From a bacterium (GTDB lineage Bacteria > Patescibacteriota > Saccharimonadia > CAILAD01 > JADZBC01), in the NCBI GenBank assembly GCA_020852295.1, contig JADZBC010000009.1, forward strand, positions 216,058 to 280,057: DNA of 64,000 nucleotides, read 5' to 3'. The first letter of the stretch is position 1; each line of letters starts with the position of its first letter. Shown piece by piece: positions 24,511 through 62,599 of the stretch. The translations under genes and the position numbers were made by a program. The notes under the pieces are model-generated. The model had not been told where the DNA came from and ran no database searches. It saw only the letters and a program-made list of their open reading frames with translations.

Positions 24511-26922
24511 ATGACAAACTATGAACCGCAAAAAGTAGAGAAAAAGTGGCAAAAGGTCTGGGAGGAAACCGGACTCTATAAGACTACGCAGCACCCCAAG
24601 AAAAAGTTTTACAACTTAGTAATGTTCCCATATCCATCGGGTAACCTGCACATTGGTCACTGGTACAACTTCGCACCGGCCGATACACTGGCTCGCTATG
24701 CCCGGATGCGAGGCCATGACGTACTGAGCCCTATTGGGTTTGACAGTTTTGGTTTGCCGGCAGAAAACGCGGCGATCAAGCGAGGCCTCAAGGCCGACAA
24801 GTGGACTGATCAAAATATTGCCGATATGACTGAACAGCTCAAGGCAATCGGAACCATGTACGACTGGGATAAAACTCTCAAGACGTCGGATCCAGAATAT
24901 TATCGCTGGACGCAATGGATGTTTTTACAGCTATATCATGCCGGTAAAGCCTACCAAAAAGATGGCTTAGTCAATTGGTGCCCAAATGACAAGACAGTGC
25001 TCGCCAATGAGCAAGTCATTCATGGTAAGTGCGATCGATGTGATGCCGTGGTGGAGCGCAAGAATCTGAAGCAGTGGTACTTCAAGATTACCGATTATGC
25101 CGAACGGCTCATTAAGGACCTCGATGCGGTTGAATGGCCTGAGCGTATCAAACAGATGCAGCGCAATTGGATTGGTCGAAGCCAGGGCGCGCGCATCAAA
25201 TTCCCCGTCGATGGCACTGAAGAAGTTCTTGAAGTTTTTACGACTCGACCGGACACAATCTTTGGTGTGACGTATATGGTTGTCGCGCCGGAGCACCCGC
25301 TAGTCGACGTGATTACTACTGAAGAGCAGCGGTCAGCTGTAGTACAATATATTGAGAAAGCTGGCAGTAAAACGGATGTTGATCGCATGGAGGCCAAGCA
25401 AAAGACAGGCGTTTTTACTGGGCGCTATGCGGTGAATCCGGCAACGAACGAACAGATCCCAATTTGGGTTGGCGATTATGTCTTGATGGGCTACGGCACT
25501 GGAGCAATCATGGCCGTTCCAGCGCATGACGAACGCGACTTCGAGTTTGCCACCACGCACGGGTTGGAGATACGACAAGTTATTGCCGGTAAGCAACTAC
25601 CTCATCTTGAGAATGGCAAGCTGATCAATTCAGCGAAGTTTGACGGCCTGAGTGTTGACGATGCAAAGTCTGAGATAACTGCTTGGCTCGGTGAAAAGCA
25701 TGTCGGCCACGCTGAAGTGCAGTATCGTCTGCGCGATTGGCTGATCTCTCGACAGCGCTATTGGGGCGCGCCAATTCCGATCATCTACTGTGATAGCTGT
25801 GGCGTAGTGCCAGTACCGGTGAAGGACCTGCCGGTTGTGCTGCCACTCGATCAGGAGTTTGATAAGTCAGGCCGATCACCACTGCTAGACCATCCTGACT
25901 ACACGCACGCGAAGTGCCCAGAGTGCGGGAAAGACGCTCGACGCGAAACCGACACCATGGACACATTTGTAGATTCGAGCTGGTACTATCTGCGCTATGT
26001 TGATCCAAGCTATCAGGATGGTCCGTTTGACCACAAGGCTGTGTCGCGATGGCTGCCAGTTGATCGTTATATCGGTGGTGCGGAACACGCCGTCATGCAT
26101 TTGCTGTACGCGCGCTTCTTCACAAAATTCTTGCACGATGAAGGCCATGTTGATTTTGTAGAGCCTTTCGCGAAGCTCATCAACCAGGGGATTATCTTGG
26201 GGCCTGATGGCAATAAGATGAGTAAATCCAAAGGCAATGTCGTTGATCCCGATGACTACGTCAGCAAGTATGGTTCCGACGCCGTCCGCGTGTATATTAT
26301 GTTCATGGGCCCTTATGACGAAGGCGGCCCATGGGATCCAAACCGATTCGAGGGTAGCTATCGTTTCATCAAAAAGATCTGGGATATGGTTGGCGGGGAA
26401 TACGAACCCACCAAGATTGACGGTGTAGCCTCGACAGAACTAGATAGCCGACTTCATAAAACGCTTGCGCGCGTCACCGATGATCTTGAGAATGTGAAGT
26501 TCAATACCGCTATTGCCGCCCTCATGGAGCTGGTAAATTATGCCGGTGGTATCCGAGCGGCCGGTTCGGTGGATTCGGCACAGTGGCAGGAATTTCGTCT
26601 CACACTAACACGGATGATGGCGCCGTTTGCGCCACACCTGAGCGAAGAGCTCTGGGAGATGCTCGGTCAAACCGAGAGCGTCCATAAAGAGGCTTGGCCA
26701 GCATTTGATCCAGCGAAGCTCGTTGAAGAAAGCCTCACGATAGTTGTGCAGGTCAATGGGAAGCTGCGTGGTCAATTTATGGTTGCGCGTGATACTGAGC
26801 GAGCGGTTGTTGAGAAGCAGGCACTCGAACTTGCCGAAGCGCAAAAATGGACACAAGATCGAGAGATCATCAAAGTTATTTTGGTACCAAACAAGCTCGT
26901 CAACATCGTTACAAAATCATGA
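24511..26922 (+). CDS. leuS: leucyl-tRNA synthetase
   Basis: HIGH motif (PYPSGNLHIGH) and KMSKS motif (GNKMSKSKGNVV). The CP1 editing domain is present. A TACAAT sits 7 nt before the ATG. Confidence 0.9.
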   Translation: MTNYEPQKVEKKWQKVWEETGLYKTTQHPKKKFYNLVMFPYPSGNLHIGHWYNFAPADTLARYARMRGHDVLSPIGFDSFGLPAENAAIKRGLKADKWTDQNIADMTEQLKAIGTMYDWDKTLKTSDPEYYRWTQWMFLQLYHAGKAYQKDGLVNWCPNDKTVLANEQVIHGKCDRCDAVVERKNLKQWYFKITDYAERLIKDLDAVEWPERIKQMQRNWIGRSQGARIKFPVDGTEEVLEVFTTRPDTIFGVTYMVVAPEHPLVDVITTEEQRSAVVQYIEKAGSKTDVDRMEAKQKTGVFTGRYAVNPATNEQIPIWVGDYVLMGYGTGAIMAVPAHDERDFEFATTHGLEIRQVIAGKQLPHLENGKLINSAKFDGLSVDDAKSEITAWLGEKHVGHAEVQYRLRDWLISRQRYWGAPIPIIYCDSCGVVPVPVKDLPVVLPLDQEFDKSGRSPLLDHPDYTHAKCPECGKDARRETDTMDTFVDSSWYYLRYVDPSYQDGPFDHKAVSRWLPVDRYIGGAEHAVMHLLYARFFTKFLHDEGHVDFVEPFAKLINQGIILGPDGNKMSKSKGNVVDPDDYVSKYGSDAVRVYIMFMGPYDEGGPWDPNRFEGSYRFIKKIWDMVGGEYEPTKIDGVASTELDSRLHKTLARVTDDLENVKFNTAIAALMELVNYAGGIRAAGSVDSAQWQEFRLTLTRMMAPFAPHLSEELWEMLGQTESVHKEAWPAFDPAKLVEESLTIVVQVNGKLRGQFMVARDTERAVVEKQALELAEAQKWTQDREIIKVILVPNKLVNIVTKS

Positions 26923-27458
26923 TCTATTTCGTGCGTCATGGTGAATCGGAGGCGAATGCGGCCGACGTGCTGGCTGGTTCGCAAATAGACTCACCAATGA
27001 CCGAAAAGGGCCGTGCCCAGGTGGGCCAAGCCATAGAGTACATAAAGCAACATGGCATCAAAATAGACCATATCGTAAGCTCGCCCATGATACGAACGCG
27101 GGAGACGGCAGAAATGATTGCACAAGCGATAGGGATCAACCCCAAATCGATTACATATGATCCACGGTTAATCGAGCATGATTGTGGTAGCTTGACCGGG
27201 CACAGTACGCAGGTGAGCTCGGTCGAACTTGTCACCGCCCCAGGCGCGGAGAGCGCCGAGGCTCTGTTGCGTCGTGTGCAGGCTGCACTACGCGACATTA
27301 TGAAGTTCGACGGCAATACGCTTATTGCCAGTCACGCAGGAGTTGGCCGCATGATAATTGCGAAGCATCGCGGTATGGACCTGAATCATTACAACGATGT
27401 TGAAGGGATTACAAACGGCGCAGTCGTGGAGCTTGATCTGACGGGCGTCGTTGACTAA
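26919..27458 (+). CDS. histidine phosphatase (phosphoglycerate mutase family)
   Basis: Catalytic motif IYFVRHGESEAN. ATGA overlap with the leuS stop. Confidence 0.7.
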   Translation: MIYFVRHGESEANAADVLAGSQIDSPMTEKGRAQVGQAIEYIKQHGIKIDHIVSSPMIRTRETAEMIAQAIGINPKSITYDPRLIEHDCGSLTGHSTQVSSVELVTAPGAESAEALLRRVQAALRDIMKFDGNTLIASHAGVGRMIIAKHRGMDLNHYNDVEGITNGAVVELDLTGVVD

Positions 27459-35928: not shown

Positions 35929-36034
35929 TTCTTCTAATTCCTACCTGTATGGATAGGTGGAGGAGCCCTCGGGTAACTCAGCGGCGTAGCTCTGGCGCCA
36001 CCCCAGAGCACTTGAAATGGAAGGAGGTGCTCGG
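35929..36034 (+). promoter_or_regulatory. structured roughly 105-nt leader, copy 1 (mutually exclusive hairpins GGCGU..GCGCC and GCTCTGG..CCAGAGC)
   Basis: Conserved against copy 2 at about 75% identity, with compensatory substitutions. Ends in an AAGGAGG RBS. Confidence 0.5.
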
Positions 36035-36463
36035 ATGAGCACCACCGAACTGAAGAAGGTCAACCTGCTCGAGTTCTTCGAGAAGGTGATCAACGGTCCC
36101 TCCCGCGAGGAGCTGTTCGACAGCCTGCGGCTGTTCAACCTCCGCCAGACGCTGGTCGAGTTCACGCTCGAGCAGAAGCGGCTGCGCGGATCGATGGTCA
36201 AGCCGACGGTCATCAAGGCCCGCGTCATGGGCATCCGTCCCGAGGACGGGTCGTCCAACCGCTGGCTGGTGGACCTGCTGGTCAACCAGATCGTCAACAG
36301 CGACACCGAGCCGGAGGACCCGTACGTCTCGATCTACTTCGACACCCAGGTGCGAGCAGGGCACATCATCGTCCCGCCGCAGCGCGAGGTCGTCGTGCGA
36401 GACGGACAGATCGTGCTGGACGGCACGGTGATCGGGAACCTCCCGGCCGCCACGTTCAGCTGA
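36035..36463 (+). CDS. hypothetical protein A (142 aa), high-GC cassette cargo, paralog of the 36713..37075 protein
   Basis: AAGGAGG RBS 8 nt upstream. Shares GPSREELFD(S/A)L and GI(R/S)xEDGSxNxW(L/I) blocks with protein B. G/C-rich third positions. Confidence 0.55.
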   Translation: MSTTELKKVNLLEFFEKVINGPSREELFDSLRLFNLRQTLVEFTLEQKRLRGSMVKPTVIKARVMGIRPEDGSSNRWLVDLLVNQIVNSDTEPEDPYVSIYFDTQVRAGHIIVPPQREVVVRDGQIVLDGTVIGNLPAATFS

Positions 36464-36469
36464 TCTTCG

Positions 36470-36577
36470 GCAAGCCAGGCCACTGGGGCCCGTGAAGATT
36501 CTACGCTTCAACGATCCGATACGTTAATTCGGGTCACCACCCAAGTTCATAACTCGTTTGTGAGTTTAGGTGGAAAG
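36470..36577 (+). repeat. 3-prime flank repeat copy 1 (about 108 nt, 97% identical to 37079-37184)
   Basis: Direct repeat containing an AACTC-gtttgt-GAGTT hairpin. Immediately followed by the next promoter. Confidence 0.7.
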
Positions 36578-36579
36578 TA

Positions 36580-36608
36580 TTGACAATATGTATTAAATAT
36601 GCTAATAT
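36580..36608 (+). promoter_or_regulatory. consensus sigma70 promoter TTGACA-17-TAATAT (cassette copy 2)
   Basis: Same hexamers and spacing as copy 1. Confidence 0.6.
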
Positions 36609-36712
36609 TTCTTCGATTCTTACCTGCATGGGTAAGTGGAGACGCCTTCGGGCATCTTAACGGCGCAGCTCTGGCGCCATCCCAGAGCACAAAACAGAAA
36701 GGGGTGTCTCGT
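36609..36712 (+). promoter_or_regulatory. structured leader, copy 2
   Basis: Hairpins CTTACC-tgcatg-GGTAAG and GCC-TTCG-GGC. Alternative pair GGCGC..GCGCC and GCTCTGG..CCAGAGC. RBS AAAGGGG. Confidence 0.5.
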
Positions 36713-37075
36713 ATGAGCACCGCCACCATCCACCCCGAAGACAAGTTCTTCGGACCCTCCCGCGAGGAGTTGTTCGACGCACTCGAACACGACCGAACCC
36801 TTCGCATGACACTGGAGAAGGACTGGTCGCAGACCAGCGATCCGCGGCAGATCGTCTTCCGGGTCATCGGCATCAGCCGCGAAGATGGTTCGAACAACTC
36901 CTGGATCCTGGAGATCGCCCTCGTGTCTGCCGTGGAGGAGCGGTTCTACCAGGGGGTCGAGGCATCGCTCAACTTCGGTGATCGCGGAGGTAAGAAGTTC
37001 GCCTCCGTCCTCGGTCGCAAGATCCGGGTGCACTACTCCTCAGCGAAGGCTGAAGGCCGATTCCTGGAGTTCTGA
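36713..37075 (+). CDS. hypothetical protein B (120 aa), paralog of protein A
   Basis: The ATG follows the leader. Conserved blocks are shared with protein A. High GC3. Confidence 0.55.
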   Translation: MSTATIHPEDKFFGPSREELFDALEHDRTLRMTLEKDWSQTSDPRQIVFRVIGISREDGSNNSWILEIALVSAVEERFYQGVEASLNFGDRGGKKFASVLGRKIRVHYSSAKAEGRFLEF

Positions 37076-37078
37076 GTG

Positions 37079-37184
37079 CAAGCCAGGCCACTGGGGCCGT
37101 GAAGCTTCTACGCTTCAACGATCCGATACGTTAATTCGGGTCACCACCCAAGTTCATAACTCGCTTGTGAGTTTAGGTGGAAAA
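37079..37184 (+). repeat. 3-prime flank repeat copy 2
   Basis: Near-identical to 36470-36577 (one indel, three substitutions). Confidence 0.7.
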
Positions 37185-37194
37185 TACTAAAACG

Positions 37195-37237
37195 GTACAA
37201 GCCCCCGACAAGATTGCTCTCGTCGGGGGCTTTGTAC
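37195..37237 (-). terminator. strong hairpin GTACAAAGCCCCCGAC-12 nt-GTCGGGGGCTTGTAC with a U-rich tail on the minus strand
   Basis: A 15-16-bp stem abutting the stop of the minus-strand ligase gene. May act bidirectionally. Confidence 0.6.
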
Positions 37238-38508
37238 TACACCAACACCGTGCCGGTCAGGATGGCATCCTTCGCGCCGTGCACGGCCTTGTTCGGCCGA
37301 GCCGTGATGGCGATGTCCTCCACGCCGGTTCGGCTGAAGTAGGCGGTGAGGCGCAGCTGCCATTCACCCGGCGGATCGAGCTGACCGCGCTCGTCGAATC
37401 GCTGCCAGGCGAACCGGCGGTTGGTCACCTCGCGCTGGAGGATGTTGGCGCCCCGCTGCCGACTGGCCGCCAGCAGCGCCTCGCCGAACTCCGGCTCGTC
37501 GCCGAAGTAGATGCCGCGCATTCCCGAAGCCACTGACTGCTTGAGCACCAGACCGTGGTGGTTCGACAGCTGGGGCGTTGTCCAGTCGCGGCCGATGATG
37601 TGGGTCATCGGCAAGTGCGACCGCACGACACGCAGAGCCGATTCACTGATCTGACTGCGCACCAGCGCTTCGATGGCCGGGTCGCCCACCGCGTTGCTCA
37701 CCACCCCGAGCAGCGACTTGCTCGCCAAGAAGTGCTTGGGGGAGATGAGGCACTGCAGCGTGCCACTCTTCAAGCCGGCGCGGAGCCAGTCGATGAGCGG
37801 CTTGTTGTAGTTCATCGGCGGCATGTCGATGAGGGTCGGCGGCAGCACCTCGCCCGTGCGGGCGTGACGCATGACGCCGGAGTGCACATCGACCTGCAGC
37901 TCGTTGATCACAGCCATCTCGATGCCCAGGAGCTTGAGCTCGCGAGCGATGATCGCAAACTCCGGCTCGTAGAAGCGCTGCGTGTCACCGAACAGGAACG
38001 TCACCGCGTCAATGCGGCGGCGCCGGCACTCAGCGGCGATGTAAGCAGCGACACCCGGGAGCTGTGCGGCCTCGGGCCGGAGCACCTGGCAGATGCGTCG
38101 ACCGATGATGGAGTAGCCCCAGCTGCGGGGGTTCGTCGCATCGATCTCGGCCAACCAGATGTGGCCCTGCTCGTCGATGAGCAGGTCGCACTTGCGCAGG
38201 ATGGGGAGGTTGCGCGGCCGGTTGTTGGGCAGCTTGTAGGGCGTGCCCTGCTTGAGGGTGTTGCCGATGCGTCCGTACGGCAGCATCTTGCCACACAGAT
38301 CCGGCTGCTCGCTGATGGCGACGATCCGGCTGATACCACCCAGCACCTCGTCGATGGCGGGGGCCAGCTGGTTGAGCTGGTTGAGCTGGTCGCTACCCAG
38401 TTCGTATACGTCCGGTGAGAGCTGGAAAGCGTGCGACCGCTCCTGCTCGCCGTTCCAAATGCCCGTCTCACGGACAGTTTCTTGCAACTCCGCAAACATG
38501 GTGTCCAT
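37237..38508 (-). CDS. glutathionylspermidine-synthase-like (YgiC/YjfC family) ATP-grasp amidoligase, high-GC
   Basis: Motif order matches the GspS-like family. The N-terminal block LIDEQGHIWLAEIDATNP matches YgiC LDLAWDG..LLENNADTP. The C-terminal lysine block GLVLKQSVASGMRGIYF matches YgiC YVVKPIFSREGANVSI. Start taken at the second ATG, which has an AAAGGA RBS. The longest ORF starts at 38541. Confidence 0.6.
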   Translation of the reverse strand: MDTMFAELQETVRETGIWNGEQERSHAFQLSPDVYELGSDQLNQLNQLAPAIDEVLGGISRIVAISEQPDLCGKMLPYGRIGNTLKQGTPYKLPNNRPRNLPILRKCDLLIDEQGHIWLAEIDATNPRSWGYSIIGRRICQVLRPEAAQLPGVAAYIAAECRRRRIDAVTFLFGDTQRFYEPEFAIIARELKLLGIEMAVINELQVDVHSGVMRHARTGEVLPPTLIDMPPMNYNKPLIDWLRAGLKSGTLQCLISPKHFLASKSLLGVVSNAVGDPAIEALVRSQISESALRVVRSHLPMTHIIGRDWTTPQLSNHHGLVLKQSVASGMRGIYFGDEPEFGEALLAASRQRGANILQREVTNRRFAWQRFDERGQLDPPGEWQLRLTAYFSRTGVEDIAITARPNKAVHGAKDAILTGTVLV

Positions 38509-38575
38509 GGCGGGTCCTTTCGGGTTGGGGTGCGTGTGCACCGATGTGAAGGTGTAGTCCTGCTGAATCGCAGGC

Positions 38576-51825: not shown

Positions 51826-52332
51826 ATGAAGCTACCAAATACCTACACAGACAAAAATGAAACAGGTTGCTGCGCTGTGCCAAATGTCTCGGCGTGGAAC
51901 GAGAAAGAGGTGAGTTTTGAGGATAAGAAATTTATCCGGCAGTACACCCGTAGTTTTCTGTTTATACCTCTCAACATGGCTAAAGTCATGACTCAGCTGC
52001 AGAAAATTGCCGCCGAAGCTCACGTCGAAGTGGATCCAAAGGAAGTGATGATATTGAGCCGCGATCTATTGCCGTGGAAAGCAGAGCAGCTCTATGCGGT
52101 GAGCAAAGAGGTGCCCGGGGCAGATAACGTGACATTGTCAGGAGATTTTCTGACCCAAACGTTCGAAGGTCCATATAGTGATGCAAAAAAATGGTATGAC
52201 AGTCTGACGGCGTTTGCGAAAAAGAAAGCCAAGACAGTGGAGCGTGTTTATTTGTTTTACACCACGTGCCCAAAATGTGCTAAGCACTATGGCAAAAACT
52301 ATACGATCGGCCTCGCGAAGATAGCCAGCTAA
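51826..52332 (+). CDS. hypothetical protein (168 aa)
   Basis: ORF with native composition. Cys pairs CC...CPKC. Confidence 0.4.
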   Translation: MKLPNTYTDKNETGCCAVPNVSAWNEKEVSFEDKKFIRQYTRSFLFIPLNMAKVMTQLQKIAAEAHVEVDPKEVMILSRDLLPWKAEQLYAVSKEVPGADNVTLSGDFLTQTFEGPYSDAKKWYDSLTAFAKKKAKTVERVYLFYTTCPKCAKHYGKNYTIGLAKIAS

Positions 52333-54261: not shown

Positions 54262-54343
54262 TTGCAATATTGCCTAATTTATGTTAGAGTATATTTTCCG
54301 CTCAATCCCGAGTGGTAACCCGTTCCCCGACAACTGGAGTGAC
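54262..54343 (+). promoter_or_regulatory. cassette 1 promoter (TTGCAA-17-TAGAGT) and leader with hairpin plus conserved CCCGTTCCCCGACA box
   Basis: The box at 54319-54332 is shared verbatim with cassettes 2 and 3. GGAG RBS. Confidence 0.5.
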
Positions 54344-54712
54344 ATGCCCAAGAAGAAGAACAACCCCAAGCTCGTGACCGGTGAGGTCAAGTGGACCCTG
54401 ACGGACCGAGGCAAGGCTGGTCGTTGCCACCACCTGGTGGACATCGATGGCAAGCGAGTGCGCGGCACCGCCGGCATCAAGCTGGACGGCTACTGCACCA
54501 TCGTCTACAACCCCGCCAACGAGACCATCCGCTTCGTCGAGCGTTCGATCATGGACATCGACGAGGTGCCGCGTGGCGCCAAGCTGGTCCTCGAGCACGT
54601 GGGCGACCCGGTCGCCCGCTGGGGCTTCCTCCCGGCCGATCTCGGCGGCAACCCGCCGGAGGGCACGGTCGTGATCATCGGCTCCTCGGAGCTGGCCACG
54701 GCCAACGCCTGA
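54344..54712 (+). CDS. hypothetical protein P1 (122 aa), high-GC cassette cargo
   Basis: GC3 about 90% by eye. GGAG RBS 6 nt upstream. Unique sequence. Confidence 0.55.
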   Translation: MPKKKNNPKLVTGEVKWTLTDRGKAGRCHHLVDIDGKRVRGTAGIKLDGYCTIVYNPANETIRFVERSIMDIDEVPRGAKLVLEHVGDPVARWGFLPADLGGNPPEGTVVIIGSSELATANA

Positions 54713-54732
54713 GACCTTCGGGTCGAACGGGA

Positions 54733-54804
54733 CCCGGGACGCAGTTGCGTCCCGGGGATCCCCCTGAGCTATCTTATGCAAAGATGGTTGAGGGGGATTT
54801 TTTG
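54733..54804 (+). terminator. conserved 3-prime element 1: CCCGGGACGC-AGTT-GCGTCCCGGG hairpin, then ATCCCCC-(TGAGC..GGTTGA loop)-GGGGGAT hairpin, then T6
   Basis: The two-hairpin module is repeated after each of the three cassettes. Confidence 0.6.
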
Positions 54805-54817
54805 TAGCTATACAATA

Positions 54818-54894
54818 TTGAAATTACATTATAAATATGTTAAAGTGATATGACCCTCTCACGAGGGCCCGTTCCCCGACACAAGGAGGCAGCA
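54818..54894 (+). promoter_or_regulatory. cassette 2 promoter (TTGAAA-17-TAAAGT) and leader with CCCTC-tcac-GAGGG hairpin plus CCCGTTCCCCGACA box
   Basis: Same architecture as cassettes 1 and 3. AAGGAGG RBS. Confidence 0.5.
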
Positions 54895-55269
54895 ATGCCC
54901 GAAAGCACCCAGACAATCCTCGCGGTTGTCAGCGAAGTCCATGCCCGGCACGCTCCGCACACCTTCGACGCCATGGGACTGTTCATTCTCGACAGTGATC
55001 AGCCCCACGACGCGTCGTATCGCGGTTTGCGTCCGCTCGGCTTCCGCTGTTCGCACTTCGATGAGCAGACAGGTCGAGTCTGGTTCGGTGACGTCGATGA
55101 GGCACACCGTGTCTCGGCGCCGTCCATCCGCGACCTGGAAGCCGGCCAACAGTTGGTCCTTATCCAGGAGCAGGCTGGTGAGTTGCTGTGGGGTCTGCCC
55201 ACGCCCACTCTCAAGGCGGCCCTCGACTACATGTTCGATGGGTTCATGCAGCTGGCCTACGGTGGCTGA
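54895..55269 (+). CDS. hypothetical protein P2 (124 aa), high-GC cassette cargo
   Basis: Perfect AAGGAGG RBS 7 nt upstream. GC3-rich. Unrelated to P1 and P3. Confidence 0.55.
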   Translation: MPESTQTILAVVSEVHARHAPHTFDAMGLFILDSDQPHDASYRGLRPLGFRCSHFDEQTGRVWFGDVDEAHRVSAPSIRDLEAGQQLVLIQEQAGELLWGLPTPTLKAALDYMFDGFMQLAYGG

Positions 55270-55288
55270 CACCTCGGCTGGAACGGGA

Positions 55289-55358
55289 CCTGAGGCGCGC
55301 AAGCGCCTCGGGAGTCCCCCTGAGCTATCTTATGCAAAGATGGTTGAGGGGGATTTTT
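55289..55358 (+). terminator. conserved 3-prime element 2: CCTGAGGCGC-GCAA-GCGCCTCGGG (GNRA loop), then TCCCCC-(TGAGC..GGTTGA)-GGGGGA, then T5
   Basis: The second hairpin is identical to element 1. The first hairpin is structurally equivalent with sequence covariation. Confidence 0.6.
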
Positions 55359-55362
55359 AGTA

Positions 55363-55449
55363 TTGAAAAAATTGTGTAATCATGCTATAGTATCAAAACT
55401 CTCTCAGCCGAGAGGGTATCCGTTCCCCGACAGATTAGATTGGACCCCG
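55363..55449 (+). promoter_or_regulatory. cassette 3 promoter (TTGAAA-17-TATAGT) and leader with CTCTC-tcagcc-GAGAG hairpin plus CCGTTCCCCGACA box
   Basis: The -35 starts right after the U-tract of element 2. The box lies at 55420-55432. Confidence 0.5.
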
Positions 55450-55926
55450 ATGACCCAACGCAATTCATCCTCCCGCCGTCCACGAGGTGATCAGCCTCGT
55501 CGTGCTGGAGGTACTCCCTCCCGTGCCGATGCCCGAACGGGCGGCACACGTACGGGCCAACCGCCGCGTCGCAAGATGTCGGCTACCACCCATCGAGCCA
55601 TCGTCAAGGTGCTCGACCCCCGCAACGAGGGTCAGTACTTCGGCTTCGTTCGACTGCTCGACGAGCAGGGTGTGCAGACCGGCGAGGAGGTCTACTTCCG
55701 CTGGAATGACGGCAGCCCCGTCGAGTACAAGCCGGGCGGCCACGTCTGGTTCGTCGACCCGAACAACAAGGGCGACCACAAGCGCAAGCCGGTGGTCGAG
55801 CGACCCATGCCGGGCGACCACATCGTCTGCCGTGTCGTGGTCACGCATCGCGGCAAGAAGGTCCTGATGTGGGGCTTCTACGACCGCGACCTCCACGAGG
55901 CAGCGATTCGTCAGGGTTGCGACTGA
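55450..55926 (+). CDS. hypothetical protein P3 (158 aa): Arg-rich disordered N-terminus plus OB-fold (cold-shock-like) domains
   Basis: AIVKVLDPRNEGQYFGFVRLLDEQG...EVYFRWNDG resembles the CSD signature GxVKWFNxxKGFGFI...DVFVHxS. High GC3. Confidence 0.5.
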   Translation: MTQRNSSSRRPRGDQPRRAGGTPSRADARTGGTRTGQPPRRKMSATTHRAIVKVLDPRNEGQYFGFVRLLDEQGVQTGEEVYFRWNDGSPVEYKPGGHVWFVDPNNKGDHKRKPVVERPMPGDHIVCRVVVTHRGKKVLMWGFYDRDLHEAAIRQGCD

Positions 55927-55943
55927 TCCAAGTCGGGGCAACG

Positions 55944-56005
55944 CCCGGAGCGCGCAAGCGTTCCGGGTAGCCCCTGAGCCAATAGTCATGTTGGTTGAGG
56001 GGCTA
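55944..56005 (+). terminator. conserved 3-prime element 3: CCCGGAGCGC-GCAA-GCGTTCCGGG, then TAGCCCC-(TGAGC..GGTTGA)-GGGGCTA
   Basis: Same two-hairpin topology as elements 1 and 2, with compensatory stem changes. No U-tract. Confidence 0.5.
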
Positions 56006-57897: not shown

Positions 57898-58060
57898 CCA
57901 AAGTTAATAGAGCCTTACGCTGAAAATAACACCCAGTTAAAACAGGGTGTTATTTTTTTAGAAAACTATTGTCGCGAAGTCTTAAAATGATGGTATTATT
58001 GAAATAACATAAGCACAATGTGCCTTATAATAGTATTGATTTTAGGAAGGATACATATCT

Positions 58061-60424
58061 ATGGCATTACGCCGCAAGTCACGTAAGCACAAGACTACTC
58101 ATAAGGCAGCATTGCATCCACATCACGCCAAACCATACCGCAAGCGACATCTGTTTGCGCTTGGCTTCTTTACCGCTTCAGTATTGGCGGTTGCTTTCTT
58201 TGGTGCTCAAAATCTAGCCAATAACGCGGCGCTCCGAACTAGTGCACAGGATGCCGCCCAGAGCATTGCAGCGAAGAACACGTTGAATACCAGCCCAATC
58301 GTTATGCGCTCAAATCTTGGTTTTGAATTAACTTACGATCCGGGAATGTTTAGTGTTACAGCAACATCCATAGAAAAAGATGGTAAACCAAAGACTTATG
58401 ATTATGCTGCTAACACCCCAACACGAGATTATTCACTGGTGCAGTTTGTACCAGCCGACACAAGCAATCAGTATGACAAGTCAGCGTTGACAGTCTATGC
58501 GCCACAGGACAAAACAGTCATACAGGCGGATCTGGCCGGTGTTGCACAAAGTTACGCCGATCGATCTGATGCCACCTTCAATGTTATTACCTCAAAAACT
58601 GAGACAGCCACCATCAACGGTCAGTCGTACCAAAAGATCACCTACGACAGTGTACCAAAGGCACGTGCTGGTAAAACAAATCTGGCAACCGTACGATCTG
58701 TTATTTATGTCGGTATTCTCGGCAATAAAAAGCCGATCATTCTCAAGATTAGTGATGTTACCGATACGATTAGTCCGCTGTCCAAATACGAAGAAGTTGT
58801 GGGTAGTCTGAAGCAGACCGGTGCGGTGGCTGCAGCGGCAAGCTTTGATCGCCAGGTGCTCATGACGGCTGCCGACATTGTCACAAAACGTAGTGGCAAG
58901 TTGAGCCTGGCAAGCGCAAATGCGTTTACTGATCGCGCTGAGGCAGCTACGTTACCTGATGCTAGCTCACGTGTCACCAACGAATACACACCGGCAGTGA
59001 CGAAGATTTATCACCTCAACTGTGGGTCGATTACCTATCAGGGGCAACCGCTCCTGCGAGATGGCTGCCTTGGCGTTACCGGCACAGGCTTCTTTGTCTC
59101 GGCAGACGGCTACATTGCCACCAACGGCCACGTTGTTTCTACGACTGCCAAGGATATCGTAGCGTACTCACTCAGCGAAGAAGTGCTGCGTCGTATCTTT
59201 GAGATTGAAGGCTACTCGCCAGCGGAAATCGATGAGCTCATTAACACAGTGTTGTCTGATCCAACCGCAGCTGCTGCAGTGCTCGCCGCGATCTATAAGT
59301 TGCCCGAAGGCTACCTCAAGATCAATAATCAGCTTGATGTGTATCTAGCGACACTTGGGAAAGATGCCCCAGATACGAAGAGCTTCCTGCGATCCCGTAG
59401 CTATAGTGATACATCAACTATTAAAAATGCGAAGCTTATCGGCTATGACTACGACAGCGCCGATCTCGTATCGACCAAGTTCACGCACTCCGATGTGGCC
59501 TTGCTGAAGCTGGATGGCAAAGACTTTCCAGTTACGACTCTCGGTAGTATCGACGGTGTTTCCAAGGGTTCTAAGTTGACGGTTATCGGCTTCCCAGGAA
59601 TTGCCGATCAGGGTGGTGGCTTAACTGATGCTACCAAGATCGAAGCGACTGCTACAACCGGCACTGTCAGTGCGATTCGCGACAGTAATGACGGTAAGCG
59701 CAAGTTGATCCAGTCTGACGCGAAGATAAGTCACGGCAACAGTGGTGGTCCAGTATTTGACGAGTCAGGTAAAGTCTTCGGGCTCGCTACCTATGTTTTG
59801 ACCGGTGAAAATGGCGATAGTAACTACTCATATATGCGCGACATCAAAGACCTCAAGGACCTAGCGCGCGATAAGGGCGTTACGTTTGATACCAATAGTG
59901 CCACCCAAAAGGCTTGGTCGGCTGGTCTCGACAGCTTCTATAAGGCGCACTACACGGCTGCCATTAACAAGTTCAAAGAAGCTCAGAAGCTCTACCCGTC
60001 ACTTGCCTTGGCTGATGACCTTATCAAAACAGCGCAGACTAAGATTGCCAACGGGGAAGAAGTCCCAGAGCCAATTTGGAGCTTCCTGCTCTGGGGTGTT
60101 GGAATTCTCTCGCTGGGCGGTGCAGTCGTCATGGTTGTGATTATCTCCAAGCACCGTGTTAAGCATGCAGTTTACACGGCGACGAATGCTGGTCAGACGC
60201 CATTGGCCGCGGCAGTGCCTGCAATGGCTGGTGCTCCAGCTGCTGCACCAGCAACCGGTTTTTCCGCACCTAAAGTAGCAATGGGGCCAATGCCACCAAC
60301 GGCAGTCCAGCCACAGATGCAGCAACCTGTTGCACCACAACAGCCGCCAGCGCAACCGCCGGTGCAACCTCAGCCGCCGCAGGGCCCTACTCCGCCGCAA
60401 AATCCACCAACCATGCCAGTCTAA
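58061..60424 (+). CDS. membrane-anchored trypsin-like (S1/HtrA-type) serine protease with a large N-terminal domain and a Pro-rich C-terminal tail
   Basis: Catalytic triad context GHVV (His), SDVALLKL (Asp) and GNSGGPVFD (Ser). TM helices near both ends. The C-terminus is Pro/Gln-rich. Confidence 0.75.
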   Translation: MALRRKSRKHKTTHKAALHPHHAKPYRKRHLFALGFFTASVLAVAFFGAQNLANNAALRTSAQDAAQSIAAKNTLNTSPIVMRSNLGFELTYDPGMFSVTATSIEKDGKPKTYDYAANTPTRDYSLVQFVPADTSNQYDKSALTVYAPQDKTVIQADLAGVAQSYADRSDATFNVITSKTETATINGQSYQKITYDSVPKARAGKTNLATVRSVIYVGILGNKKPIILKISDVTDTISPLSKYEEVVGSLKQTGAVAAAASFDRQVLMTAADIVTKRSGKLSLASANAFTDRAEAATLPDASSRVTNEYTPAVTKIYHLNCGSITYQGQPLLRDGCLGVTGTGFFVSADGYIATNGHVVSTTAKDIVAYSLSEEVLRRIFEIEGYSPAEIDELINTVLSDPTAAAAVLAAIYKLPEGYLKINNQLDVYLATLGKDAPDTKSFLRSRSYSDTSTIKNAKLIGYDYDSADLVSTKFTHSDVALLKLDGKDFPVTTLGSIDGVSKGSKLTVIGFPGIADQGGGLTDATKIEATATTGTVSAIRDSNDGKRKLIQSDAKISHGNSGGPVFDESGKVFGLATYVLTGENGDSNYSYMRDIKDLKDLARDKGVTFDTNSATQKAWSAGLDSFYKAHYTAAINKFKEAQKLYPSLALADDLIKTAQTKIANGEEVPEPIWSFLLWGVGILSLGGAVVMVVIISKHRVKHAVYTATNAGQTPLAAAVPAMAGAPAAAPATGFSAPKVAMGPMPPTAVQPQMQQPVAPQQPPAQPPVQPQPPQGPTPPQNPPTMPV

Positions 60425-60438
60425 CAAGATAGGCAGTC

Positions 60439-60471
60439 GAGGCCCATCGTTTGATGGGCCTCGTGTATAAT
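60439..60471 (+). promoter_or_regulatory. terminator hairpin GAGGCCCATC-GTTT-GATGGGCCTC, immediately followed by extended -10 TGTATAAT
   Basis: Perfect 10-bp stem after the protease stop. TGnTATAAT sits 24 nt upstream of the heliorhodopsin ATG, which has an AGAGG RBS. Confidence 0.55.
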
Positions 60472-60495
60472 GTACGTATAAACATAAGAGGTTAC

Positions 60496-61266
60496 ATGGC
60501 GACGCAAAGTCAGAAGATTACAAAACTGGTTCGATTTAATCGCATCATGGCCGCCCTCCATTTCCTTCAGGGCGTAGCAATGGTATTGCTTAGTAAGAAT
60601 TTTACATTGCCCATTCAGGCAAATTTCTTGAGTTTTGACGTAAAGACCCAAAGCCTCGTTCCTGCCACCAAGACTCTCTTTGATCTGCCGTTAGCTTGGC
60701 TCGTAGCTGGCTTTTTATTTATGTCAGCTGCTGCACACCTCATAATCTCGACCATTTATAAGAAGCGCTACGAGAAGGGGCTCAAGCAGGGTATCAATCG
60801 GGCTCGTTGGATCGAATACTCTATTTCAGCCAGTACCATGATGGTGGCGATTGCTCTGCTGGTTGGTATCTATGACGCGGGGCTTTTGATTGCTATCTTT
60901 GCGCTAACTGCTGTCATGAACTTGCTGGGTTTGGTTATGGAGATCCACAATCAAACTACTCAAAAAACAAATTGGGTTAGCTATATCGTAGGCTGCATCA
61001 GCGGAATAGTACCCTGGATTGTGGTAGCACTTTACTTCTGGTCAGCTGCCCAGTACGGTGACGGCAAAATCCCAGACTTTGTGTACTGGATATATGTCAG
61101 TATTTTTATCTTCTTCAACTGCTTTGCCATCAATATGATTCTGCAATACAAGAAGTGGGGCAAGTGGTCAGACTACCTTTATGGTGAGCGCGCCTACATC
61201 ATCCTGAGTCTTGTTGCGAAATCGCTTCTTGCGTGGCAGGTTTTTGCCGGTACACTGCGCCCCTAG
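60496..61266 (+). CDS. heliorhodopsin (7-TM retinal protein)
   Basis: Close match to characterised heliorhodopsin blocks: FNRI near the N-terminus, WIEYSISAS, GCISGIVPWI, and KWSDYLYGERAYIILSLVAKSLLAWQVFAGTL. The Schiff-base Lys sits in VAKS. Seven hydrophobic helices. Confidence 0.85.
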   Translation: MATQSQKITKLVRFNRIMAALHFLQGVAMVLLSKNFTLPIQANFLSFDVKTQSLVPATKTLFDLPLAWLVAGFLFMSAAAHLIISTIYKKRYEKGLKQGINRARWIEYSISASTMMVAIALLVGIYDAGLLIAIFALTAVMNLLGLVMEIHNQTTQKTNWVSYIVGCISGIVPWIVVALYFWSAAQYGDGKIPDFVYWIYVSIFIFFNCFAINMILQYKKWGKWSDYLYGERAYIILSLVAKSLLAWQVFAGTLRP

Positions 61267-61384
61267 CACAAAAAATAGACATTATTTAGAAATTATTGTA
61301 TAATTCTAATCGTATGATGAATGTCGAGCTCTATGAAGGTTTTCTCGCTGTTCATTAGTGAAGAAAACATAACGAAAGGCATTC

Positions 61385-62599
61385 ATGAGAAAGCGATCTT
61401 TTTCGCGTCCAAGCTCACCACGCAGTGGTGGCCAGTTTCGACGTAACGGTAGGGTAGTAAATTTTAACAGTCGACCAAAACGCGGTCCTGCAGCGATTGA
61501 CCCACAGCGGTTCATCAATAAAGCAATAGCGCCAGTTGAGCAAGAGGTCTATGTACCTCATCATCAGTTTACGGATTTTGCTTTTACCGAAGGACTGAAA
61601 GCAAATATTATTAAGCGCGGTTTTACCGCCCCAACCCCAATCCAAGATAAATCCATAACGCCGGTGCTTGAAGGGCGAGACCTGATTGGTCTGGCCAATA
61701 CGGGTACCGGTAAGACGGCAGCCTTTTTGCTGCCCCTAATTGATCACATGCAGCGCCGCAACGGTCGTGGGACCGTACTGATTGTCGTGCCCACACGAGA
61801 GCTAGCAGTGCAGATTGATGATGAGTTTCGAGAATTTGGCAAAGGCTTGCGACTATATTCGGCACTCTGTGTTGGCGGCGCGAGTATGAATCGACAAATC
61901 GAGCAGTTGCGACGCCGGCCGCAGTTTGTGATCGGTACGCCGGGACGTCTCAAGGACTTGGTCCAGCAACGCGTACTGAAGCTTGAGCACACCAACGCGT
62001 TGGTGCTCGATGAGGCTGATCGCATGCTCGACATGGGCTTTATTAACGATATTGAATTTCTGATGAGTAAGCTGCCAGAAGAGCGCCAGTCACTTTGTTT
62101 TTCGGCAACGCTTAGTCCGGAGATCGAGCGCTTAGTGCATCGTTTGCTCAAAGACCCGGTGACTGTATCAGTGCGAACCGCCGAAACAAGTCAGAATGTC
62201 GATCAGGACATTGTGCGGGCTGGCAGCAAAGAGGAGAAGCTGGAGCTTCTTATTGACCTACTTAAGCAAGAAGATTTTGACAAGGTGTTGGTGTTTGGTC
62301 AGACAAAGTGGGGAGTGCAACGCTTGGCCGACACTTTGAAGAAGCACGATATTGTAGCTGAAGCCATTCACGGCGACAAGTCTCAGCCACAGCGCCAGAA
62401 AGCACTGCGGGCCTTCAAGAATAACCAAGCGAAAGTATTGGTGGCGACCGACGTTGCGGCGCGCGGACTCGACATTCCAAATGTTTCGCACGTGATCAAC
62501 TTTGATCAGCCTAATAACTATGACGATTACATCCACCGTATCGGTCGAACCGGTCGTGGTGGCAAGGCCGGCAAAGCACTGACCTTCGTCGCACACTAA
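61385..62599 (+). CDS. DEAD-box ATP-dependent RNA helicase
   Basis: Q-motif, TGTGKTAAF, DEAD, SAT and HRIGRTGRGG motifs. An Arg/Ser-rich N-terminal tail. A roughly 80-nt 5-prime UTR follows a TGTATAAT. Confidence 0.85.
   Translation: MRKRSFSRPSSPRSGGQFRRNGRVVNFNSRPKRGPAAIDPQRFINKAIAPVEQEVYVPHHQFTDFAFTEGLKANIIKRGFTAPTPIQDKSITPVLEGRDLIGLANTGTGKTAAFLLPLIDHMQRRNGRGTVLIVVPTRELAVQIDDEFREFGKGLRLYSALCVGGASMNRQIEQLRRRPQFVIGTPGRLKDLVQQRVLKLEHTNALVLDEADRMLDMGFINDIEFLMSKLPEERQSLCFSATLSPEIERLVHRLLKDPVTVSVRTAETSQNVDQDIVRAGSKEEKLELLIDLLKQEDFDKVLVFGQTKWGVQRLADTLKKHDIVAEAIHGDKSQPQRQKALRAFKNNQAKVLVATDVAARGLDIPNVSHVINFDQPNNYDDYIHRIGRTGRGGKAGKALTFVAH

Follow-up and report, generated by a model that had tools for sequence, protein, structure and literature searches.

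A TaHeR-type heliorhodopsin gene in a Saccharibacteria-like Patescibacterium, a candidate light sensor loaded with exogenous retinal

The locus described here lies in a 64-kb stretch of DNA (the whole stretch that was analysed is called the window below) and comprises the genes for a serine protease, a heliorhodopsin (HeR) and a DEAD-box RNA helicase, together with the expression signals between them (Table 1). The HeR open reading frame is on the + strand and its stop codon, TAG, occupies positions 61264-61266. A preliminary description of the locus had given the product as 257 aa long and had let the gene start at 60464. The product read from the ATG at 60496 is, however, 256 aa long, and position 60464 is not part of a codon but the first base of the TG that precedes the -10 hexamer. 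The peptide strings that had been quoted from the product (FNRI, WIEYSISAS, GCISGIVPWI and KWSDYLYGERAYIILSLVAKSLLAWQVFAGTL) all lie within it. Two longer versions of the gene have also been called: a mechanical open reading frame that begins with TTG at 60451 (271 aa) and a public call (P0001) that begins with ATG at 60454 (270 aa). We rejected both as over-extended, because both starts are part of the upstream hairpin and precede the -10 hexamer, because 104 of 120 homologue starts fall 0-5 alignment columns past M1 of the 256-aa product (i.e. at it or just downstream), because the orthologue in a relative whose HeR is 88% identical was called at 256 aa, and because the Shine-Dalgarno sequence AAGAGG stands 4 nt ahead of the ATG at 60496. 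At least 10 metagenome contigs in public data already carry the exact HeR sequence, for which a PF18761 tag has been precomputed; the gene is unannotated on those contigs.

Table 1. Coordinates of the genes and sequence elements at the heliorhodopsin locus (positions in the window)
Feature	Position	Strand	Basis or remark
Membrane-anchored trypsin/HtrA-like serine protease, 787 aa, upstream gene	58061..60424	+	Pfam Trypsin_2, E 2.6e-25
Hairpin, perfect 11-bp, GC-rich, 4-nt loop	60438..60463	+	Between the protease stop (60424) and the HeR -10
-10 hexamer TATAAT, TG directly before it (60464-60465)	60466..60471	+	Hexamer search; ends 24 nt before the ATG
Shine-Dalgarno sequence AAGAGG	60486..60491	+	Sequence reading; 4 nt before the ATG
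Heliorhodopsin (HeR) CDS	60496..61266	+	256 aa plus TAG
Sigma-70-like promoter of the helicase gene, TAGACA-17-TATAAT	61276..61304	+	11/12 match
DEAD-box RNA helicase (CshA/RhlE-like), 404 aa, downstream gene	61385..62599	+	Pfam DEAD, Helicase_C

In front of the HeR gene the hairpin is followed directly by TGTATAAT, and then by 14 nt, AAGAGG, 4 nt and the ATG. A sigma-70 scan found no -35-like hexamer 16-18 nt upstream of the -10 hexamer, a region that is occupied by an arm of the hairpin. The gene had been credited with its own extended -10 promoter, and this claim held in part. In the relative (loci L089/L090; HeR 88% identical at the amino acid level) the sequences TGTATAcT and AAAAGG are kept while the intergenic flanks have diverged. 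Because the -10 and the Shine-Dalgarno sequence are kept in the relative in spite of the divergence around them, we regard a separate promoter for the HeR gene as very probable, a call that we base on sequence and on this one comparison of two species. The term 'extended', in contrast, is inaccurate in the strict sense, since the TG abuts the hexamer (at -14/-13) and the one-base spacer of the canonical TGnTATAAT (TG at -15/-14) is missing: the site reads cgTGTATAAT and a search for TGNTATAAT gave no match there. Canonical TGNTATAAT sites are found at four other places in the window (2624, 16582, 18171 and 19861). The hexamer TATAAT occurs 30 times in the window compared to 18.5 expected occurrences (a count of 30 was reached by 1 of 100 shuffles), mostly just upstream of genes on the + strand, and the layout of the HeR gene (a -10 that ends 24 nt before the start, plus a Shine-Dalgarno sequence) recurs at the genes that start at 51826 and 62650.

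The 60-nt stretch that contains the hairpin (60421-60480) had a minimum free energy of -24.3 kcal/mol (centroid -20.9, z -4.2) and none of 200 shuffled sequences was as stable. No U-tract follows the hairpin in this strain. In the relative, the same place is taken by a hairpin of unrelated sequence that is followed by UUUU (dG -21.2, z -5.9). We therefore rejected the idea of a HeR-specific regulatory element and consider, by the same two-species comparison, that the hairpin probably terminates transcription of the protease gene.

The protease encoded upstream has a Pro/Gln-rich C-terminal tail, and its matches to NCBIfam models of the HtrA type remained below their cutoffs. On the other side of the HeR gene, the promoter of the helicase gene starts 10 nt past the HeR stop codon; it is also kept in L089 and directly adjoins the HeR stop there. 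The helicase scored 402 bits against the NCBIfam CshA model, which is below the cutoff. Its 5' leader of ~80 nt (61305-61384) is conserved and is predicted to fold in such a way that it pairs with its own Shine-Dalgarno sequence and AUG. No terminator was found between the HeR gene and the helicase promoter, and as this promoter begins so soon after the HeR stop, some read-through from the HeR gene into the helicase leader is likely, as far as the sequence can tell. The relative with the 88% identical HeR has these genes in the same order, protease-HeR-helicase.

The product of the central gene is, with virtual certainty, a heliorhodopsin, as had been proposed from inspection of the sequence. 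The profile search that had been suggested as a check returned a highly significant match to Pfam PF18761 (Heliorhodopsin; E 9e-101, 336.7 bits compared to a cutoff of 26.7) that extends over profile positions 1-242 of 242. The NCBIfam equivalog NF038020 ('heliorhodopsin HeR') gave 348.4 bits (cutoff 100, E 2e-104), so that the NCBI pipeline would name the gene automatically. When the PDB was searched with phmmer, the best match was 6is6 (TaHeR, E 4.8e-87) and the next was 48C12 (E ~2e-57); the HeR is 59% identical to TaHeR over 243 aligned residues and 45% identical to 48C12. Matches to all three resources are thus far beyond chance.

The predicted fold agrees with this assignment. The AlphaFold2 model, for which 54 homologues were used (mean pLDDT 92.6), has seven transmembrane helices (TM; residues 4-32, 66-85, 102-123, 128-155, 161-187, 194-218 and 227-254), and it also contains two hallmarks of HeRs, a beta-hairpin in the AB loop (residues 37-65, with strands 37-48 and 53-65) and a helix in the BC loop (residues 89-97). 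In Foldseek comparisons the model matched 6is6 with a TM-score of 0.95 (rmsd 1.2 Å) and 48C12 (6su3) with a TM-score of ~0.90, while the best type-1 rhodopsin structures reached at most 0.64 at 9-18% identity. The type-1 rhodopsin profile PF01036 did not match the protein at E <= 0.01. Because of this, and because of the low structural similarity and a helix-7 motif that reads SxxxK versus DxxxK, we rejected a type-1 microbial rhodopsin. Every property of heliorhodopsins that can be tested at the level of sequence or fold is present in the protein. Within the helix limits of the model we counted 15 Lys and Arg residues in the N-terminus and the BC, DE and FG loops versus 5 in the AB, CD and EF loops and the C-terminus; read purely as a positive-inside count, this distribution is consistent with the N-in orientation of the family. 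In a rough neighbour-joining (NJ) tree without support values, HeRs from Thermoplasmatales nest among those from Patescibacteria.

The functional residues are intact as well. The retinal-binding lysine, which the preliminary description had located in the string VAKS, is kept as K242 in the helix-7 motif SLVAK, the motif that was the commonest one in a survey of HeRs from CPR genomes (PMC9166423). This Schiff-base lysine is invariant in all 120 nearest homologues, and the stretch S238-L-V-A-K242 aligns with S237/K241 of 48C12. The counterion E107, together with H22 and H81, aligns with E107, H23 and H80 of 48C12. Moreover, H22, Q25, S77, H81, N101, W105, E107, E149, E231, S238 and K242 are each found in 111-120 of the 120 nearest homologues. 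At the positions that line the fenestration, a lateral opening between TM5 and TM6 whose list of residues we took from a recent preprint, the protein has Y163, C167, G170, F207, N208 and A211, which at the level of sequence are the residues of TaHeR.

As to the organism, the placement of the gene in a streamlined genome of the Patescibacteria/Saccharibacteria type was supported both by the relatives of the HeR and by the genes in the window. The nearest genomic relatives of the HeR came overwhelmingly from Saccharibacteria MAGs (60-73% identity); others were from a few other classes of Patescibacteria, from Thermoplasmatales (56-60%) and from Acidimicrobiales (~45%). The best named match of the LeuRS encoded in the window was from Candidatus Saccharibacteria (61%), and BipA and a cupin showed 58-75% identity and loose synteny with two Saccharibacteria MAGs (L008 and L010). 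The window also encodes FemAB, Mur ligases, a LysM-CHAP protein and a class II RNR, and many of its ORFs are small and have no match in Pfam, a content that fits a reduced Gram-positive-like genome. With regard to a monoderm envelope, the ~60 ORFs of the 64 kb included those for FemAB, the Mur ligases and LysM-CHAP, and none of the ~60 ORFs encoded an outer-membrane marker; sortases are present in related HeR loci. The host of the gene is a Saccharibacteria-like Patescibacterium, itself tiny and probably dependent on a host. The GC3 of the HeR gene (0.55) is inside the range of its neighbours, which together with the loose synteny with L008 and L010 argues for a resident gene and led us to reject its recent horizontal import.

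We also scanned the ~60 ORFs of the window with Pfam for genes that could make retinal or work together with the HeR. In agreement with the earlier statement that the window lacks blh and crt genes, these ORFs included no Blh, CCD, phytoene synthase or desaturase, or lycopene cyclase. Type-1 rhodopsin genes were likewise absent from the ~60 ORFs, as were the known HeR partners glutamine synthetase, photolyase and ABC transporter, and also histidine kinases and response regulators. Rfam at gathering thresholds found only two tRNAs in the whole window.

We then compared the surroundings of the HeR gene in 81 HeR loci (80 GTDB species representatives and this species), in which ORFs within +/-5 kb were clustered de novo. 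The neighbour that recurred most often was an ABC ATPase (13 of 81 loci); a 168-aa unannotated protein was found at six loci and MsrA at five. MsrA, RsmE, PD-(D/E)XK, SerRS and RmuC recurred only inside sub-clades: in one sub-clade msrA lies upstream and rsmE downstream of the HeR gene, and in another the 168-aa protein adjoins it. As nothing exceeded 13 of 81 loci, no partner can be assigned to the HeR by its neighbourhood, and we rejected a conserved partner identified through guilt by association. This result agrees with the published view that HeRs have no consistent gene neighbourhood. Adjacency of the protease and the helicase to the HeR gene is confined to this species and the relative with the 88% identical HeR. 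The protease was not found near the HeR gene in the other 80 loci, and a DEAD-box homologue within 10 kb was seen only at L037, where it is on the opposite strand.

What does the HeR do in this organism? The explanation that we favour, with a probability of about 0.6, is that it acts as a slow-cycling light sensor that is loaded with exogenous retinal; it would be a seven-helix retinal protein of the TaHeR type, predicted to be functional and to have its N-terminus in the cytoplasm. The uptake of retinal, the lack of ion transport, the slow photocycle and the sensory role are all carried over from characterised homologues, the closest of which is 59% identical. TaHeR, 48C12 and most other HeRs do not transport ions and have photocycles longer than 1 s (PMC9385722). 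The host of TaHeR lacks retinal synthesis, and the fenestration has been proposed to serve the uptake of exogenous retinal (PMC9385722; PMC9296517). For rhodopsin-bearing Saccharibacteria, one study reported the absence of blh and proposed that their retinal comes from the host, with Actinobacteria of the same lakes as the likely source (PMC9296517). Since there are no retinal genes in the window and blh has been reported to be absent from rhodopsin-bearing Saccharibacteria, retinal is probably scavenged through the fenestration. Judged by the 64-kb window and this published absence, the cell most plausibly obtains its retinal from outside.

In the mechanism that we propose, the HeR gene would be transcribed from its own -10-dominated promoter just past the protease terminator. 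The apoprotein would then acquire all-trans-retinal that other organisms have synthesised, the most plausible ones being the host or neighbouring Actinobacteria. The retinal would enter by the TM5/TM6 fenestration and would be bound to K242 as a protonated Schiff base with E107 as the counterion. Light would isomerise the retinal and the proton would move to the cavity formed by E107, H22 and H81 and not across the membrane, and the long-lived O-like state (~1 s) would pass the signal on by directly contacting a partner in the cytoplasm or the membrane. The HeR would thus be a light-dependent switch, probably for photo-oxidative stress or housekeeping, and not an energy-conserving pump. The leading published ideas are that HeRs control oxidative-stress defence or housekeeping enzymes in a light-dependent manner by direct binding.

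Other roles of the protein have to be weighed against that of a sensor. A 2025 preprint regards HeRs as two-antenna light harvesters rather than mere sensors, and the HeR described here could be such a two-chromophore protein, in which the fenestration binds an exogenous xanthophyll antenna. Its six fenestration residues (aromatic residues at 163 and 207, small residues at 167 and 211, G170 and N208) match the motif of the preprint, and the envelope looks monoderm, as judged from FemAB and the Mur ligases in the window and the sortases in related loci. The preprint, however, is based on docking and motif statistics and demonstrates neither a carotenoid-bound HeR nor energy transfer, and without ion transport there is no obvious route by which the harvested energy could be conserved. 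We consider this role unlikely, and as an antenna is compatible with a sensor, it would modify the main explanation and not replace it; in an episymbiont, a light harvester would mean that both retinal and carotenoid are scavenged from the host. The fenestration motif also bears on the question whether the HeR could be a light-gated proton transporter similar to the viral V2HeR3, given that proton transport is known for some HeRs (PMC9448325). According to the preprint, the viral transporters belong to a group of HeRs that lacks the motif, whereas the protein from the window has it; furthermore, its 59% identity and the NJ tree place it in the TaHeR-type clade, which has been tested and showed no transport. 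We give transport hardly any credence. It is also highly improbable that the HeR catalyses a light-dependent reaction in the conserved polar cavity close to E149 or in that of the Schiff base, or else that it is an inactive apoprotein without retinal. Catalysis by HeRs has been suggested in print and the conserved cavity residues E149 and E231 are kept, but no HeR is known to have a substrate or an enzymatic activity. The apoprotein would be in keeping with the lack of retinal genes in the window, but the strict conservation of K242 and of the entire retinal pocket across the 120 nearest homologues argues for natural binding of the chromophore.

Finally, we asked whether the HeR could be a light-dependent regulator of one of the genes next to it, either of the DEAD-box helicase (via read-through) or of the HtrA-like protease. 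There is a precedent for partners of this kind: every HeR function shown so far uses a partner encoded by a neighbouring gene, the known pairs being HeR-glutamine synthetase, HeR-photolyase and HeR-ABC transporter (PMC9529153, PMC9769723, PMC11109279). The protease, HeR and helicase genes are co-directional, there is no terminator between the HeR gene and the helicase promoter, and the gene order is shared with the 88% identical relative. The adjacency is, however, limited to these two species, with no protease at the other 80 loci; all three genes have promoters of their own; and helicases and proteases are absent from the ten recurrent classes of HeR neighbours (PMC11109279). Regulation of a neighbour is thus quite improbable, and slightly less probable again is its more specific form, in which the HeR and the CshA-like helicase (or the protease) would constitute a light-responsive unit, coupled by read-through into the self-sequestering leader or by binding. 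If such a unit did exist in an episymbiont, the turnover of RNA or proteolysis at the envelope would be adjusted by light or by retinal from the host, the latter standing in for host contact, and the helicase or protease would represent a class of partner not known before for HeRs.

The two questions that the preliminary description had raised, where the retinal comes from and what is being sensed, are not new (PMC9166423, PMC9296517). HeRs of Saccharimonadia and the puzzle of their retinal source have already been published, and the gene described here is a routine further member of the group. Chiriac et al. 2022 (PMC9166423) reported 98 HeRs in 1,326 CPR genomes, 80 of them in Saccharimonadia. 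The HeR from the window shares with these proteins the class of the host, the SLVAK motif and the inconsistent gene context; as far as we checked, neither its sequence nor its species is named in that study. What the gene adds is one more intact HeR of the TaHeR type in a clade that is already rich in HeRs. Its 59% identity to a crystallised homologue makes it a candidate for tests of the capture of exogenous retinal or xanthophyll, as the organism apparently makes neither, and its compact layout of promoter, Shine-Dalgarno sequence and terminator could help to map transcription signals in Patescibacteria.

Among the systems that have been characterised, the type-1 rhodopsins of Saccharibacteria (SacRs, PMC9296517) come from the same group of hosts and likewise depend on exogenous retinal. 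They are proton pumps with a DTS motif that take up retinal rapidly through a hole in the pocket (PMC9296517), and they differ from the HeR in their family, in their opposite topology and in pumping protons. The founding member of the heliorhodopsins, the actinobacterial 48C12 (PDB 6SU3, 6UH3), has the same family, fold and key residues as the HeR from the window but represents a more distant clade, with F162, N138, S112 and Q213 where the latter has Tyr, Thr, Ala and Met. At two of these positions (T138 and M214, N138 and Q213 in 48C12) the HeR from the window matches TaHeR of the Thermoplasmatales archaeon SG8-52-1 (PDB 6IS6, 7U55, 7CLJ), with which S238/K242, E107, H22 and H81 are also identical, and in both proteins the first aromatic residue of the fenestration is Tyr and not Phe. 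The two differ in the EF loop, where the HeR from the window has an insertion of five residues (AAQYGDGKIP compared to AESVP in TaHeR), and in their hosts, which are archaeal for TaHeR and bacterial (Patescibacteria) for the HeR described here, although the host of TaHeR is likewise thought to lack retinal synthesis.

In at least 12 genes of the window, the gap between the end of a TATAAT-like -10 hexamer and the start codon is only 4-8 nt, and a Shine-Dalgarno (SD) sequence is missing; this combination is the signature of leaderless mRNAs. In a second class, which includes the heliorhodopsin (HeR) gene, the -10 hexamer ends 22-29 nt upstream of the start and an SD is present. TATAAT was counted 30 times in the window versus 18.5 expected.

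The DEAD-box helicase gene downstream of HeR has a 5' leader of ∼80 nt that is strongly conserved between the window and L089, a contig of a related species. In both species the leader folds such that UGAUGAAUG pairs with the SD/AUG region to form an outer helix, the inner hairpin contains compensatory changes between the two, and the folding z-scores are -1.9 and -3.6. The leader had no match in Rfam. Its predicted fold could serve as a thermosensor or an autoregulatory leader.

We placed the HeRs of the numbered loci L001-L080 in a rough NJ tree without support values, in which the Thermoplasmatales HeRs (L059, L064 and the crystallised TaHeR) nest within the Patescibacteria HeRs, and Berkelbacteria and Dojkabacteria HeRs form deeper branches. 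This nesting hints at inter-domain transfer. HeR genes were also present on two contigs binned as diderms (Burkholderiales and Deferrimicrobium), which, if the bins are true, would break the 'monoderm-only' rule. L065 is probably mis-binned, because its GC content is 41.7% and its HeR clusters with Saccharibacteria. L070 has a GC content of 56.6% and a 370-aa ORF.

Public contigs of the same species as the window are 97.5-98.5% identical to it in DNA, and their HeR is identical. Between the BipA and protease genes the window has 66 nt, whereas these contigs contain an extra 1.9 kb, in which lies an ORF of 601 aa that belongs to no known family. This difference is a strain-level indel.

Elsewhere, the window contains a GC-rich island (GC 0.61 versus 0.51 for the window) in which ORF assignment is ambiguous, either strand being eligible; a pair of paralogous ORFs and a 434-aa ORF within it gave no family match. 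Three small ORFs in tandem (143, 139 and 187 aa; local GC 0.58) are weakly paralogous, with 22-23% identity and a common N-terminal PRGxPFPD, and had no match in Pfam or NCBIfam. A GC hairpin of very high stability (dG -27 to -34) lies on the 3' side of each ORF, and after it comes a common TGAGCTATCT at hairpins 1 and 2 and AGCCAATAGT at hairpin 3. A direct repeat of 116 nt (78%) is intergenic.

Coordinates of the features (window positions unless a contig is named)
Feature	Position	Remarks
SD-less, short-gap gene starts	987, 2641, 3360, 8306(-), 8407, 9715, 14238, 17258, 17700, 19876, 24511, 41000(-)	
Helicase leader	61305-61384; L089 1278-1366	
HeR contigs of diderm bins	L065 CAZLQP010000022.1, L070 DASRKF010000013.1	Burkholderiales and Deferrimicrobium
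Indel	57898-57963; L081 5632-7507	L081, same-species contig
GC-rich island	35940-38560	
Paralogous ORF pair	36017-36463 and 36599-37075	∼150 aa each, GPSREELFD in common
434-aa ORF	37237-38541	- strand
Tandem small ORFs	54281-55990	
Direct repeat	54718-54833 and 55274-55389	

The LeuRS of the window (24511-27458 region) is 803 aa long and carries no NUDIX fusion, and a histidine-phosphatase gene comes after its gene. In contrast, many of the close LeuRS homologues (among database proteins P0124-P0223) are ∼950 aa long with a fused NUDIX domain.
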